Part shown: one piece after another, positions 4,215 to 58,624 of the stretch
Layout of the letters: every line of letters starts with the position of its first letter
Numbering within the stretch: the first letter of the stretch is position 1
NCBI GenBank assembly: GCA_013239625.1
Contig: MU057073.1
Coordinates: 1,535,426-1,599,425 of the forward strand
From: Lama guanicoe
Taxonomy: Eukaryota
DNA: 64,000 bases
Direction: 5' to 3'
Notes under the pieces: generated by a model
The model's database searches: none
What the model was told of the DNA's origin: nothing
The model's input: the letters and a program-made list of their open reading frames with translations, nothing else
Program-made: the position numbers and the translations under genes

Positions 4215-6163
4215 AGCACCCAGCCCGGGCTGAGCCTTCTTGTTTTGCACTTTATACATACGTCTTTGTATTTATAGAGAGCTTGCAGTTTCTTGAGCCT
4301 AAATGTGATTTTTACATGCATATTTCAATCTCCATATTTATGATTTTAGCAAATTATATTCAGTATCTCTGCTGCTTTTGATGTTGCAAAACAAATATTA
4401 CAGCTTATTAACTTTTCCATTTGGATCGTTATCTGTATGTTGTGTGATTTTTTGGGTTTTTTTTTAAATCAGAAAATGGAATAGGGGCAGCTTTTTAATT
4501 TTTTTTAATAGGTTGTCCAAGCATTCAAATGCAGGTATTTCAGAATCTAGAAATAGTCGTAACCTTACATAGTAATTTCTAGGACAATTATGAGAAAGGG
4601 GGAAGTTTTTGGTTAAACAGAAGTAAGGTCCAATACTAAAGCAGTACAATTACATATTTCATTATACTAAGTAAAGCAGAAGGATTTTTTTCATTTCTAA
4701 AACCCGATTAGTCCCACCCAGTTTAACAGGGTGGGAGTTTTTTGTTTTTCCAGACAGTCTGTTCTTTCATAAACATTTTTTGTTTGAAGAACGGTGTCTG
4801 TGTTTCCCCCCATACTCTGCATTTAGAGGGGGATTCTTATTTTTGTGTGTGACATAGGAAAATTATGAAAATTAATAGCAAAAAAGTATTTGAGACTACT
4901 TTGAAGAAAGAACACCAGCTAACATTTTCAAGTTGCTTTTGTTTGTAAAATCTGAACTTCCAGTTTCCCTTAGAAATTAGTAATGGACCTTAAAAAAAAA
5001 AAAAGGAAACACCTGTATCCAGAGTAGGATAATGAAAACGAGATTAGTTACCTATTATCAGGTTGTGTCAGAGTAAGCAAAAATGAATCTAGCATGTCCT
5101 GGGCTTCTCCTGTTGTTCAAGGCTGCATGATGAACACACCTGTTAAGCATTCCCCGTGCTGCTGTGTGGTGTGTGAGAGCAGAAACTGTCTGCAGCCCTG
5201 CGGGACCAGATCCTTGTCGCTTATTCAGAGGAAGTTAGCCGTCAACGCCTGGCACCCGGAAACATCGCTCTCTGGGCCCCTGCTGCGCCTCTGAGTTCCT
5301 GTCACTGGCATGTGGATGTTTGTCTAGTGCCTAAGAGGACCAGTAAATATCAGTGCATGAAATGTTTTTTTCTTCTGCTAAAGGTTATACGTATTTCTGT
5401 ACCTACGAATTCATGATCCAGTTTTACGGTTGCCTGTTAACGTGAACAAGAGACTTCCCCAGAGTTCTGAAGCGCCTAGGCAAGACGCTGCCCCAGCATC
5501 GCAGCTAACAGACCGCTCCCTGTAGTCACTCAGAGTAACCCTATTAGAGTGCACCCTTTGAGCTCTGTAGTAATTTGTGATTTTCTTTCAGAGATATTTG
5601 ATAACTTTGTAAACAGCTAAAAATAAGATAAAGGAGTAGCCCTGAATACCTGAAAGATTATAAAAAGTGCAGCCCTAGGAGATTTTCACGCTATGTCAGT
5701 ACTGCCCGCTAATTAAAAGCCCTTGATATGGCCTGCCTACTAGGAATGTTCTAGATTCATTGGATAGTGGGGTCAAAGGGCAGTCAGAGGTCTTGGGGCA
5801 AGAGCGCCTCCCGTCTGCACATCCAGCAGGCTCTCGAGTGCAGCTTAATTGGTAGCTCATTTTGACCAAAGCTGTTTTAGGATTGCTACTCGGTGTAATT
5901 TTAGGGTGCTCTTAAAATCCTGAAGAGCACTGTTTGAGTTAGCCCACTGGGATAATCGAGGCCGTCCTGACTCACTTCAGCCATAACCCACATACTGCGC
6001 CAGCGCCTACTACTTCGTGTTAATTTTGGATTTGAAAGTTCAGTGTCCGCCTTTCCTTTCAGAGCAGCCACTGTCACATGAGAGCAGGTCCTCCCCCATC
6101 ATTCATTTGCAGCGATGTTTCCTGCAACTTCCATAGAGCCAGCTCAGACTGCTCTCCTCAGCC

Positions 6164-49590: not shown

Positions 49591-50151
49591 TATCTTGTGA
49601 AACTACTTAGAAAAACACACAATGTTCACAACTATAAATTTAAACCTTTTGCACTAAAAACCATGAGACAACAAACACAAAACCACAGGCATGAACTGTA
49701 AACCTGTATTAACTGTCAACTAGTCTTGAAGTTAATTCTTAGTAGTATTTCAGTATTTTCCTTCTTGGCAATTCTAATGTTTTAGCACCAAAGGATCTCC
49801 CACAGAGGTACTCGTGACAACTCTGGTTGCCAGTGTAAGGAGATGCTTCCGTCTGCACTACTTCACACACGCGCCGTCCACTCTCACACCCGCACAGGAG
49901 GCATGTGGAGATGCTGTCACACGCTGACAATGGAAATAAGACAGAGGGCACACGTGTCNNNNNNNNNNNNNNNNNNNNNNNNNNNNNNNNNNNNNNNNNN
50001 NNNNNNNNNNNNNNNNNNNNNNNNNNNNNNNNNNNNNNNNNNNNNNNNNNNNNNNNNNNNNNNNNNNNNNNNNNNNNNNNNNNNNNNNNNTTCCATCAGT
50101 GTTCATGAAAACACTTTAAACTGCTACTTAATTTACACCGTAATTACCGGG

Positions 50152-50497
50152 TTACAGCTTTAGCTCATTGGCAATTTTGGAAGCAATATTTTTGAAAGCT
50201 ATGGACGTCCCTGATATCCGCTTGAACCGGACCCCATTCAGAGACAGTCTGGGCAGCTTGCACACCTCCATCTCCCACTGCACGAGGCTCTCTGCGTGCC
50301 CATCGCCGTGGACACAAAAGAGCAGGAAGCGCTCTCTCTGCTCATAGTCGCAGTTATTGGCGTCCAGCACTTTGCGGATCTCCCGCATCATGTCATTGGG
50401 ATCCATGGAACTAGTGGTTTTCATGCTCCAGGTAAAGCGCAGGGAACGAGGCTTTGCTTCTTTGTTTTCCTCCTTTTGTTCAGCAGATACGTTGCGA
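50152..50497 (-). CDS. MARK3: MARK3 (C-TAK1) last coding exon, KA1 domain
   Basis: Acceptor TGCATTTCAG|; [33 protein letters not shown]...[14 protein letters not shown] followed by TAA. Confidence 0.97.
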
Positions 50498-52506
50498 CTG
50501 AAATGCACAGTGGCAGGTTTATTCTTAACTGCACAGGAAAACCAACCTTTTCTATTTCAGCTAGTTCATGACCACATCTCCAATACAGCATAGTAAACGA
50601 CTTCCACATTTTTCCTGCATAGACTCACATTTGGTAATTTGCTCCTTTACCACAAAGTATTCATCTGTTTTCCTTCTCCCCTAAATCATAAGTCACACAC
50701 ACACAAAATCTACCTGGGTGAAAAATCTTCACCAGTCATCTGTACTTACTAAAATTAAGAAAATAATTTGTTAAACAGAATCCTTGGGAATCAGGCAAAG
50801 CAGAGAGAGGGCGAGCGCATCCCCTAGAGCCCAGCCCTGCCCATCCAGGCTGGCTGCAGGGGGCAAGATGCCGGCAGGGCCCCTCAGAGGCCCAGCTCAG
50901 GAAGGAGGGGTCAGCAGCCCAGCCTCCAGCTCTGCTGGGCCTGGCCTTCTCCTCCACCGCAATTTCTAAAAATTTACCACAACCTCTACTGTCACTGTTC
51001 CTCAGGATAACCAGTGGCTCGGCAAGTTTGAAATCGCTTTCCCTGCAGACAGCTCCAGATGTTAAGCACAGCTGGATGGAGGGTAGGCCATTCTCTCAGT
51101 CCCTTCCACCCACCTCAGCACTTTTCCTTCACTTTTATTAATTTCAACTTTCAATTTCACAGTTAAAAAGAATTCTTAGATGGCACAACCTTCTTACTAA
51201 AATAGGAAAATGAAATGAGGCCTTTTGCTGGCAAGCAGTGAATGACCAGTTTGGATGAAAACTGTACGAATTCACAGTGCAGGCTGTGGTCCCAGTCTCC
51301 GCGAGGTGGTGTCACAGCAGGGCCCCACGCGTGGCTCTCAGTGGCTCTCCAACAAAAGGCACCCGCTGTCTCACTGCTCTGAGGCATTCAATCATCGCTG
51401 CCACAAAAAACTGTTCACACTCTCCTGTGTGTCTGGGCGCCTCAATTAGGAAAATCAGTACCTGACACTCTTGCGCATTAAAAACTTTCTGGATATGTAG
51501 TTAAATACACTAATCCTCTGGCAAATTCATCAGAGCTGAGGCTGGGCCAGAGGTTTTACTATGCATACGGCTCTCCCTGTTGCCAAACTGCTAGCAGAAT
51601 ACTGAGTTTGATTCACACCTACCAAAACTGTTCGAAAGCTTCCTACATAGAAAATGCTGCTAGATACGAAACAGGCTACAAACATGAGCAAAAGCTCTCT
51701 AAGCTGGGGTGGGGGAGGAAAGATGTAACACAAGAAGACTGCAGTAGCAGGTAACATGAGCAGTCGGCTGGAGTCACAGGAGAAGTGGAGCCTGCCCAGC
51801 GGGGGCTTGCATGCAGAAAGGCAGGGTGGGATAAGGAGGCAAGGGCTCCAGTGGGGTTGGGTGGCACAAGAGAAGAGCCGTGAAGAGGTCGTGGGATGGT
51901 GGTGGACGAGAGTTTGTGTGTCGAGCAGAAGAAATAACTAAGTGAAGGCCAGGAGGTATGGAAGGCACAGAACGTGTCGCAGGCACAATCAACTGTACAG
52001 ACGGACAGGAGCTGAGGGCACAGCGTCAGGCCCCCCGCCCCCAATCCATGCAATGACAGCTACACAACACGTAAAAGAAAACATAATTCTTTAAAAAAAA
52101 TCTAATTTGAAATATGAAAACTCTACTCAATACCCTGCTTTCACCCTTAGAGACCAGATCTACACCAGGAGTTGTCACCCTGCTCCCATCGGCTCCCATC
52201 GGCTCCGGGACCTCACTTCAGATACCGGACATGCTCAGGCAGGAGGAGGGCTGTGCATTTTAACACGCAAACACCCTGTCAGCTGGGGCTGGGATCTGGA
52301 GGTTTCGCCGCTGGGCGGCGAAAGCACTTGAGCGCCCTCACGTGGCCACTGGGACCAAGCCACTCAGGGGCCCAGGTCCACGTGATGCTGGCCTCACTAT
52401 GCAGTCCTGCCCAGAAGGAGGACTATGACGCAGAACAGTGTTGCCTCTGCCACGGAAAAGAGGTAAATACCTATAAAATATTTTAAGTAAAAATCATTTC
52501 CCTCAC

Positions 52507-52551
52507 CTTGAGCCCTCATATCTCCCGTTCCTCTCATATTCAGTTGGAAGC
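52507..52551 (-). CDS. MARK3: MARK3 45-nt cassette exon (RLPTEYERNGRYEGSS)
   Basis: GCTTCCAACTGAATATGAGAGGAACGGGAGATATGAGGGCTCAAG, with a GAG acceptor and AAG|GTGAGG donor; phase 2-2. Confidence 0.92.
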
Positions 52552-53734
52552 CTCAACGAATAGAATTCAGAAGCACAGAGAAGTGGGAAAGAGAAAAGAG
52601 ATCTTACACAGCAGTACACAACCACCTGTATATAAACACAAACACTGTAAAGTGGGCTTTTAAAAACTCCTCCTTTCATGGGTGCGACTCAGCCAGAGAC
52701 CGCCGTCCATGCGTCTACAGGCCGTGCGGGGGGCGCGCTGCACACCCACTTCACATCCACTGCGGGCAACCCCGGCCAGCTCTGGGCCTGAGCACACTCA
52801 TGGTCTTGGGCTGCAGTCACTCTGACTCTTCCCTCACCCCTCGAAGCGCAAGGGGTTTCCAGGGAAACAGTCACGGAGTGGAGTCTCCCACAGAAGAAGG
52901 CACTCTTCCCACAGCTTCTGGCAACGCCGTCTTCCAGTGGCCACAGGCAGGCCAGCACCAGGAAGGCGAGTGGCGCAGCACACACAGCCGCACAGGTGTG
53001 CGTTCTGAGACAGCGAGCAGCGCTTCTGGTCTCTCGACTGTCATAAAAAGACACCCACCTAGTAGGAGTGACATTTAGTACAGCGCAGTCAGTACAAAGG
53101 AGGCACATTTCTTCAGTGGCTGGTTGGAAGTGGCTTTTAGAGACAACACTACTTACTCTTCAATTCTTGGAAAATATTAAAACGTTTCTGCTATACGTCT
53201 GTCCATGTCTTAATTTCTGAAAAACCCAAGCCAAATGAGGCTGTAGATTTGAATTTTATGCTTGTTTCCAGTATCAGGACATTAGCTAATTTCTCTAGCA
53301 TTTTAAAGCATTTTGCTAATGCGATCATCCACGAAATAAAAAATGACAAGTTACCACTTACCTTGTGCATGCTTGAGGCTAACCATTAATTGCACACAGT
53401 TACTGAGCATCTCACTCTTCAAACAGAAGCATGCTAAGTGTTATTAGTATAAAGACAGAATTATTTGGATGCTAAATAATTCTACCAGAGACAGAAGACG
53501 CACAGAGCATGCGCAGGCCTCTTGTTACATGGGTGCACAGTCCCTTTAAAATGCCTAACAGAGTTAATCTTTTTCTTTCCAGTTTCCTTTCAAAGACATA
53601 GGTATTTAGTTCTTGGCAGAAAGTTTAGTTTTTAAGGAAAAAAAACAGGGCTAGAAAGCCAAACTTGATGTTAACTGCAGGAGCCATTTTGAGGTGAGGA
53701 TTGAAAAAAAAAAAAGTGTATATATAAGTCCTAC

Positions 53735-53761
53735 CTTTTGATAAACCTGAATGACATGTTT
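53735..53761 (-). CDS. MARK3: MARK3 27-nt microexon (RNMSFRFIK)
   Basis: TTTCTTTTAG|AAACATGTCATTCAGGTTTATCAAAAG|GTAGG; phase 2-2. Confidence 0.92.
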
Positions 53762-55754
53762 CTAAAAGAAATTAAGCCAAAGAAAAAAAATTAACAAAAA
53801 TGACTTTCACAAGTTAAATAGTCAATTACAGAGAACAAAAAACAGCAAGTAAAACGGGGCTCCCCTCCTGTCCGACAGTGAAACTGTGACATTTGATGAA
53901 AAAGAAGTCATCACAGGTAAGTGGCATGTGATCTTTTAATAGAAAAATAAAAACATCTGTGCTTGCAAGAAAAAATTTAGCAGTAAATAGACATCAGCTG
54001 TAATTAAATTAAAGGTTCTTCAGATGGATATACCTCGAGCCAACAAAATTCAACATCTTGTGTTAAAGAAAAGTCATTTGCAATGTATTAGTAATAACAT
54101 TTCTCAATTTTCTTCAGAATACCTTATGAACAAAATCTCACCTTATATAGAAAAGTTGAAAATTTCATTATAAAATATCTATGAAGGGAATTATTACTTA
54201 TTTCAGGAAGATGATTTAAACATTAACAGAACCTCTGCCACGGTGGTATGATATAAATCACTTTTTAAGAAAAAAAAGTTTCTGGAGGTTTTTTTTTCCC
54301 TTGCAGTTTTAATACACTTGACATACAGCACTCTAGTAAGTTATGGGGAGTTTAAAACGAAGTAGACTTTTCAGAGTTTTAGCTACCAAAATGAATGAAA
54401 ATTAAATGACAAGAGTAGGGGTTTTATTTTTATGGAATAAACTGGAAAGCTGCATTTAAAAGAAGTGACTCTGCTCGTTAAAAACAATTTAAGAAGAGGC
54501 TTAAAGGAGGCTGCACTGAACAGAATACGACACAAAGAACTTTAAACTGTGGACCAGGCTTGTATGGTCATGTGACCAGCACTCCTGGGCAAGTACAGGT
54601 TGGCCTATCAGACTATTTCTAGAACTCAGTCTATGAGCACAGGAGGCACACGTAAGTATTTGCTGAGTGACTGAATTAATACATTCCTTCCCCTAATTCG
54701 GGATGACTTCAGCATTGCTTCAGATCCCAACCAATTCTAAAAGTATCTAACTGCTGTAGATAACCGTCCACCACTTCATAATCAGCTCAAAAGTAGTACA
54801 CGGCAGGGCTACACGCAGAAAAGATCATGCATGTGAAAATATTTTGTAAATAATTAAACACTACATAAATACAGGGCAGTATACTTCAAAAGATTATTTT
54901 AGTTGAAAATTGATTAAAAGGTCTTTAAAATGTATTTTCATTTCCAAATTTTCTACCTGAGAAAGTCAGGTATCATAGGGCTGCCTTTCTTAACTTTTCC
55001 TCCTACAAATCCCTTCAGGTACAAAGAGGAGGCCGCAGGGCTGGAGCTCTACACCCTCCTCCACGGGGATGGATCCTTAGGAGCCAGCAAGGGCGGGCTG
55101 TTCTGCTCGCAAGGTATGGGTGACTGAGTATGTGCCGAGCTGGTGGCCAGGTCCCCGGGGGTGGGGAGGAGCTCCAGGCCCTGGGGGGTAGGCCTCGCCC
55201 CCTCTGCCCACAGAGGGCCTCAGAGGTTGCAGAGCCACAGCTCTCTGAAGCCACACAACACGCAGGGCCCTGCTAGGAGCAGAGTGTAGCCTTCTGATAC
55301 CAGCCTTCTTCCCACCAAGTCCCGGCAGGTCTCCCTGGCGGCATCTCAGTGCCAACACTGGACCTTTCAGGCGCTAGCCCCTTAATCCTGGCAACTATCG
55401 TTAGGGGAGGGCAAGAAGCAGATGCGTCAGCAGCAAGGACCCCGAGTGCTTTTAGGAATGAACCGACTACAACTGAAGCACAGGACCAAGGGGACTACAG
55501 CCCTCGGACTGCAAACTAACAGACAGAAGATGATCTTTCTGCAAAATGTGGGGGTGGAAGCTGAATGATAAGATGATCACCCCCCAGAATATTTTTAACA
55601 AGAAACCTCAGTCTCTAATTTCAGCTCAAACACTTGAAATAAATTTAATTAGAAAATGAAGGAGAAGGACTCGTGCCTGTAACAGTCCCTGGCGGTCGTC
55701 CACCAGGGAGCACTACGTACCGGGCTCCTGTGGGGACACGGACTCTTTCGCTGC

Positions 55755-57507: not shown

Positions 57508-57765
57508 CTCCTTGTGAGTTTGGAAGTTAATTTACTAAAAAGATTAGTGGAGCCTCGGCTTCGAGTCTGCGACAACGGTGTGGCTTCATGGGACAGACTG
57601 GGCGAGGCAGGTGGGCCGTTATACGTGGCAGTGCGCCGCTCCCGGGGCTGGCCATGAAAAGTGCTACGACTGGCGGTGCCTCTTGGGAAGCGGGTCCGAT
57701 CTGGCGTGGCTGCACTGCTAATACTGTGTGTGGACGCAACTGGAGCTCTCTGGTCAGGAACAGTG
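57508..57765 (-). CDS. MARK3: MARK3 258-nt spacer-region exon
   Basis: [17 protein letters not shown]...[12 protein letters not shown] (aPKC-site motif)...[11 protein letters not shown]; acceptor CGTTAG| and donor GAG|GTAAGT. Confidence 0.96.
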
Positions 57766-58462: not shown

Positions 58463-58624
58463 ATAGCCTTGGAGTTATCTCCTTCACTGTCTATTGGAGG
58501 TAACATCATCTTGGGGTGCCCAGAGGCTGACATGGACATCGACTTCTGATGTCTCAGCCGACAGGTGGAGGATGTGGTACAAACAGAGGCAGGGCTAGCT
58601 GCGTAAGCGAACATTTCTGTCAGG
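58463..58624 (-). CDS. MARK3: MARK3 162-nt alternative exon
   Basis: SLTEMFAYAASPASVCTTSSTCRLRHQKSMSMSASGHPKMMLPPIDSEGDNSKA; the RHQKSMS motif is shared with MARK1/2 spacer exons. Acceptor CCTCCCAG| and donor TAT|GTAAGA; phase 2-2. Confidence 0.88.

Follow-up and report, generated by a model that had tools for sequence, protein, structure and literature searches.

A candidate 17-nt microexon before the dual-frame exon of MARK3 suggests a MARK4S-like isoform that lacks KA1

MARK3 is a polarity and microtubule kinase. In MARK kinases, the KA1 domain mediates autoinhibition and binding to membranes through acidic lipids. Conserved poison exons and neural microexons of the SRRM4 type are classes of exon with which a short candidate exon in such a gene can be compared. 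The closest described switch is that of MARK4, in which exon 16 separates MARK4S from MARK4L (PMC9355243); MARK4S is expressed in brain (PMC10390814). MARK1, MARK3 and MARK4 were reported to have a common, chordate-wide dual-coding region (Tress et al. 2026 preprint, bioRxiv 10.64898/2026.05.28.727796), although the available text of the preprint reports two-frame selection for MARK4 only and does not name the splice event of MARK3. MARK3 itself has an in-frame 27-nt exon with an RBFOX/QKI module. Deletion of GCATG elements in a human minigene lowered its inclusion from 16% to 8-9% (PMC11874969), and QKI binds downstream of regulated MARK3 exons (PMC9122611). These RBFOX and QKI elements act on the 27-nt exon, and a further exon is unmentioned in the available portions of both papers. 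Similarly, only known in-frame MARK exons appear in what is available of PMC8235023 and PMC6140460.

Here we analysed a 64,000-nt stretch of the Lama guanicoe genome (the window) and describe a candidate 17-nt cassette that lies in the same intron as this RBFOX/QKI module. What is new is the candidate entry exon for mammalian MARK3; the type of switch is known from MARK4, and the dual-frame tail from Tress 2026.

The MARK3 locus

The gene was identified as MARK3, with a last exon that is 100% identical to that of annotated MARK3 from whale, camel and meerkat. The following features carry the analysis.

57508-57765, minus strand: upstream 258-nt exon with a phase-2 donor
53735-53761, minus strand: known alternative 27-nt microexon (human exon 16 of PMC11874969), present in annotated proteins
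53399-53856, minus strand: conserved block that surrounds the 27-nt exon and extends 3′ of it, containing RBFOX motifs (GCATG) and ACTAAT, which is either a QKI-type motif or a branch point
53379-53402, minus strand: predicted acceptor region of the 17-mer, with a TAAC branch-point candidate, TGTGTGC and a weak pyrimidine tract
53362-53378, minus strand: candidate 17-nt (3n+2) cassette microexon, predicted from sequence (ttag / 17 nt ending in AAG / gtaagt)
53362-53416, minus strand: rival 55-nt exon that shares the donor of the 17-mer and has an in-frame stop and a GAAG acceptor at 53417
53355-53364, minus strand: strong, conserved 5′ splice site AAG/GTAAGTG, with its GT at 53361-53360
52507-52551, minus strand: known alternative 45-nt exon, dual-frame; main frame LPTEYERNGRYEGS, +1 frame FQLNMRGTGDMRAQ
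50421-50497, minus strand: beginning of the last exon as translated in the +1 frame, up to TGA
50151-50497, minus strand: last coding exon in the main frame, encoding KA1

Between the 27-nt and 45-nt exons, the minus strand does read AG, 17 nt and GTAAGT at 53362-53378, as the initial annotation of this stretch had claimed. The motifs that it placed around the candidate were likewise all located: TGTGTGC at 53398-53392, before the 17-nt acceptor; ACTAAT at 53448-53443; and GCATG at 53512, 53434 and 53372, the last copy being inside the candidate. Their presence stands, but two of them have a published function elsewhere. The GCATGs at 53512 and 53434, mapped by the deletion primers of PMC11874969, correspond to the elements tested in that study, which enhance the 27-nt exon in a human minigene. 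The conserved block can thus largely be accounted for with no new exon; the donor is located past its end.

Upstream, the window also contains a 162-nt in-frame alternative exon (58463-58624, minus strand) with conserved flanks, which is 165 nt long in the orthologous contig introduced below.

A conserved splice donor

A pattern for the 27-nt exon had a single ortholog match among metagenome contigs, L002, and no match in viral or prokaryote contigs. The introns of L002 align with the window only near exons, so that it comes from a distant vertebrate; our guess is a bird or reptile. L002 has an identical 27-nt exon, as does the mouse table of PMC7821500, and the window from 53856 to 53399 is 71% identical to L002 over 474 columns. 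L002 covers the locus only up to a point before its 45-nt exon, and the +1 frame therefore lies outside this comparison.

Just past the end of the aligned block, at the matching place, L002 retains 10/10 bases of AAG/GTAAGTG, 357 nt after the 27-nt exon (373 nt in the window). This donor is the sole match to [ACG]AG/GT[AG]AG[TG] in the three window introns scanned (1,183, 3,746 and 2,009 nt), and the same strong-donor pattern has a single match in the two stretches of L002 scanned (3,782 and 2,357 nt). Shuffling of the local 100 nt produced a 9/9 donor in around 0.2% of 20,000 replicates (p ~0.002). The GTAAGT donor is thus more than chance, and the site at 53361 is deeply conserved.

An opposite-strand open reading frame (ORF) spans the site; used as a query, it gave three matches, two of which (P0190 and P0191) reach the site; the third ends earlier. 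The two ORFs are 55-59% identical to the query and are probably from other mammals. Both show the 17-nt spacing between acceptor and donor without an indel when placed gaplessly at stop codons, with the register set by hand. The flank bases that are fixed by their amino acids equal those of the window in 18/18 cases, compared with 18/23 in the exon body, and the two ORFs jointly determine both acceptor bases (AG) as well as GTAAGT. The body itself has drifted: at least 3 of its 17 bases differ in each of the two sequences, and the internal GCATG is lost in one. The HAQ-containing peptide named in the initial annotation is predicted to vary among species. With at least 0.14-0.19 changes per base in the downstream intron, the flank match has a chance probability of roughly 0.006-0.07. 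As the register was set by hand and the matches were selected by similarity, this conservation is moderate evidence.

For conservation of the AG and GT sites, on which the initial annotation had let its proposal depend, the three sequences give a mixed picture. In the hand-set register, P0190 and P0191 are compatible with a change of frame; in L002 the sites are present, but the 17-mer encodes an in-frame stop.

Acceptors that could use the donor

In the window, exons of 17, 41 and 53 nt on this donor are open and of length 3n+2, and those of 55 and 72 nt contain a stop. A relaxed cassette scan, which recovers the MARK4 cassette as a control (a stricter scan missed it), was applied to the two MARK3 introns that precede the 45-nt exon. 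It returned 18 candidates that are open and of length 3n+2, and only the three on this donor border the L002-shared block. The 17-nt acceptor has a pyrimidine fraction of 0.45, compared with 0.59-0.82 for four known acceptors, which agrees with the weak tract already remarked on in the initial annotation. Its TAAC branch-point candidate has the A at 53400, at -22 from the acceptor with no intervening AG, and is the last aligned motif of the L002-shared block. In L002, too, an AG lies exactly 17 nt 5′ of the donor (local AG frequency, 0.06), and no acceptor that would open the +1 frame was found in L002 within 130 nt of the donor. Neither L002 nor a human primer has the GT at 53415, and an 18-nt in-frame exon with its end at this GT was rejected on that ground.

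The best combination of branch point and tract belongs to the 55-nt acceptor, and the donor might instead close a stop-containing exon that starts there. Such an exon would probably act as a poison exon together with the 45-nt exon and would otherwise yield a truncated kinase without KA1, leaving the 17-nt AG incidental or minor. ACTAAT lies 28 nt before the conserved GAAG, with a short pyrimidine run; in L002, where the same acceptor gives a 63-nt exon, the distance is 27 nt, and the GAAG also occurs in the human primer. An in-frame stop occurs in both species; with the 45-nt exon present, it precedes the last junction by 69 and 74 nt. The 69 nt of the 55-nt form exceed the 50-55 nt required of a poison exon, a distance at which the 17-nt form has no stop. 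In the alignment with L002 the shared codons differ partly synonymously, and a stop exon would account for the retention of the donor by L002. However, the available text of PMC11874969 and, for QKI, PMC9122611 already accounts for ACTAAT and the adjacent GCATG as elements that enhance the 27-nt exon; the likeness of the +1 frame to MARK4 (below) and the fixed 17-nt spacing are left unexplained; and the isoform is absent from 170 stored proteins. We consider this reading unlikely.

The donor might also pair with a longer acceptor (41 or 53 nt) to enter the +1 frame, or the frame might be entered at another site. The 41-nt and 53-nt versions are both 3n+2 and open, the sum of 27 and 53 nt equals the 80 nt of the MARK4 cassette, and, according to the available text of PMC9580925, exons 15-18 of MARK3 include an alternative 3′ splice site, the position of which is not given. 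Yet the AG of the 53-nt version is missing from both L002 and the human primer, and that of the 41-nt version from L002. An AG 26 nt before the last-exon acceptor (window 50498-50525, minus strand) would enter the +1 frame as well, but is incompatible with the ORFs of two relatives (P0003 and P0004), which have Lys for Arg there. Entry by any of these routes seems highly improbable.

A reading frame shared with MARK4S

When exons are spliced by coordinates, inclusion of the 17-mer puts both the 45-nt exon and the last exon in the +1 frame, and the stop starts 74 nt after the last junction, whether or not the 27-nt and 45-nt exons are present. The splicing reproduced the tail that had been predicted, open through the 45-nt exon and into the last exon as far as the TGA at 50421-50423. 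KA1 (PF02149) corresponds to residues 72-114 of the main frame of the last exon; it lies downstream of the +1 stop and is therefore lost when the 17-mer is included. A stop in the last exon with loss of KA1 is the arrangement of MARK4S.

Two properties of the tail carry no weight of their own. As 64% of synonymous resamples retain an open +1 frame, openness was rejected as evidence for an exon. A run with at least 6 Lys or Arg among 7 residues is kept in 100% of resamples; KRRKTKK is dictated by the main-frame codons and is therefore no sign of an evolved nuclear localization signal (NLS), so the NLS-like tail of the initial annotation has to be dropped. The main frame of the 45-nt exon is identical in 112/112 stored proteins matched by pattern. 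In 5/168 proteins (3 from the bat Saccopteryx and 2 from tortoise), Val-Ala stands where the +1 frame needs a Tyr codon, which is possibly a +1 stop if the Val codon is unchanged.

In this genome, the 45-nt exon of MARK4 is immediately preceded by an 80-nt (3n+2) cassette that has a GTAAGT donor, and inclusion of this cassette leads to a short +1 tail that stops at the same codon as in MARK3; the resulting isoform is MARK4S. The MARK3 17-mer likewise has a 3n+2 length, canonical splice sites and a position directly upstream of the 45-nt exon, and the +1 frame that follows it is open and homologous to the tail of MARK4S. An alignment of MARK3 with MARK4 across 24 codons scores 62 (BLOSUM) in the +1 frame compared with 26 in the main frame, and 62 is reached by 0/20,000 synonymous resamples (null mean 5, s.d. 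11); the 45-nt exon alone scores 39 in the +1 frame and 15 in the main frame. The tails are visibly alike, with NMRGTGDMRAQ in the +1 frame of MARK3 and NLRESGDLRSQ in MARK4. These alignments indicate that the MARK3 +1 frame is ancient, conserved between paralogues and of MARK4S type. The same likeness would, however, also arise if the MARK3 exon were frozen for other reasons and only MARK4 were selected in the +1 frame. No homologue of the 80-nt exon was found in MARK3, MARK1, MARK2 or L002, in which the best local scores (25-26) lie elsewhere in the intron. The MARK3 candidate might thus work like MARK4 exon 16 by analogy; for common descent of the two exons the sequences offer no support.

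Other family members were also seen in this genome. A likely MARK2 (L014) has a counterpart of the 45-nt exon without +1-frame likeness to MARK3, consistent with the omission of MARK2 from the dual-coding list of Tress 2026. A likely MARK1 (L012) has a candidate 12-nt in-frame microexon (4879-4890, minus strand) followed after 125 nt by a GTAAGT donor (4753), with GCATG upstream, the layout also seen in MARK3; the acceptor nearest to this donor gives a 13-nt exon that leads to a stop. Elsewhere, the 3′ half of the MARK1-like last exon occurs a second time, at G000:C8876:15953858-15954022 (L006), approximately 2.4 kb downstream of the first copy; this is either a tandem duplication or an assembly artefact.

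Searches for an existing isoform

Protein queries with the +1 frame led only to unnamed genomic ORFs (in one query both of its two candidates, in another the two examined out of 11). Neither the peptide nor the tail occurs in any of 170 stored MARK3 proteins, a set biased by having been gathered with a KA1 query. Among the 2,984 microexons of a mouse table (PMC7821500, MicroExonator), only the 27-nt exon falls in the coordinate range searched; the sequence of this row confirms the range. The mouse junction library contains only exons of at least 30 nt and filters weak sites, and therefore would miss co-inclusion with the 27-nt exon. The available literature yielded no description of a 17-nt exon or a stop exon at this MARK3 site, although supplements may name one. 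MARK terms had no match in the text and 9 supplements of PMC13247117 or in 5 files of PMC4317164, and PMC13160074 has a single MARK4 passage with no other MARK match.

These searches bear on the possibility that mammals have no exon here at all. The donor would then be a decoy or U1-binding element within the 27-nt/45-nt module, or the remnant of an ancestral cassette, and the +1 likeness would persist because the 45-nt exon of MARK3 is frozen while selection in the +1 frame acts on MARK4 only. Several observations fit: the isoform was found neither in annotation nor in the mouse catalogue, L002 has its stop, the acceptor is weak, the 45-nt exon is invariant in the 112 matched proteins and the +1 frame is likely to be broken in a bat and a tortoise. 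The human minigene of PMC11874969, the stated span of which includes the candidate site, reports only 27-nt exon inclusion in its available text. Nevertheless, retention of the donor over a long distance, together with the AG and 17-nt spacing in two probable mammals, exceeds what a relic needs, and MARK3 is listed as a dual-coding gene in the available text of Tress 2026. On balance we regard a decoy or relic as somewhat unlikely.

A possible MARK3 switch

We see an even chance that the donor at 53361 closes a rarely included 17-nt cassette that would give a MARK4S-like MARK3 without KA1. The conserved donor and the 17-nt acceptor, with its branch point near 53400 and UGC-rich linker, would be used at a low level, and inclusion would shift the 45-nt and last exons to the +1 frame. 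Inclusion might depend on RBFOX-, QKI- or SRRM-type factors of brain or muscle and would probably be accompanied by inclusion of the 27-nt exon. The mRNA would be expected to escape nonsense-mediated decay (NMD) under the last-junction rule, and the protein to lose KA1-dependent autoinhibition and acidic-lipid binding. Of the switch first proposed, the KA1-less, NMD-escaping kinase is favoured by the MARK4S-type frame, the conserved donor and the 17-nt geometry in two probable mammals, whereas its NLS is not; the selected part of the tail is likely to be the MARK4S-like core rather than a dedicated NLS. More tentatively, mammalian MARK3 may keep this unannotated 17-nt switch to a KA1-less ‘MARK3S’ that went unnoticed because it is coupled to the 27-nt microexon, whose junctions are absent from discovery libraries made with exons of ≥30 nt; through this donor, the L002 lineage may arrive at the same loss of KA1 by an immediate stop.

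If the exon is used, mammals have a further form of MARK3 with different targeting, which would escape both annotation and C-terminal antibodies, and the family-level claim of dual-frame coding gains a concrete, testable entry exon in MARK3. As the type of switch is known from MARK4, the surprise would be moderate.

Among known systems, conserved poison exons and neural SRRM4-type microexons resemble the 17-mer in conserved flanks, in shortness (3-27 nt for the neural class) and in the UGC before the acceptor. Neural microexons preserve the frame and have a highly conserved body and a strong tract, whereas the 17-mer is 3n+2, with a drifting body and a tract fraction of 0.45. From poison exons the 17-mer differs in that its stop lies in the last exon. 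The MARK4S switch is the closest match. Its cassette is 80 nt long with a strong tract (0.82) and MARK4S is an established brain isoform, whereas the MARK3 exon is a candidate predicted from sequence, 17 nt long with a weak tract; yet both are 3n+2 exons with a GTAAGT donor, both stand before a 45-nt exon that would be read in the +1 frame on inclusion, and inclusion of either would remove KA1.
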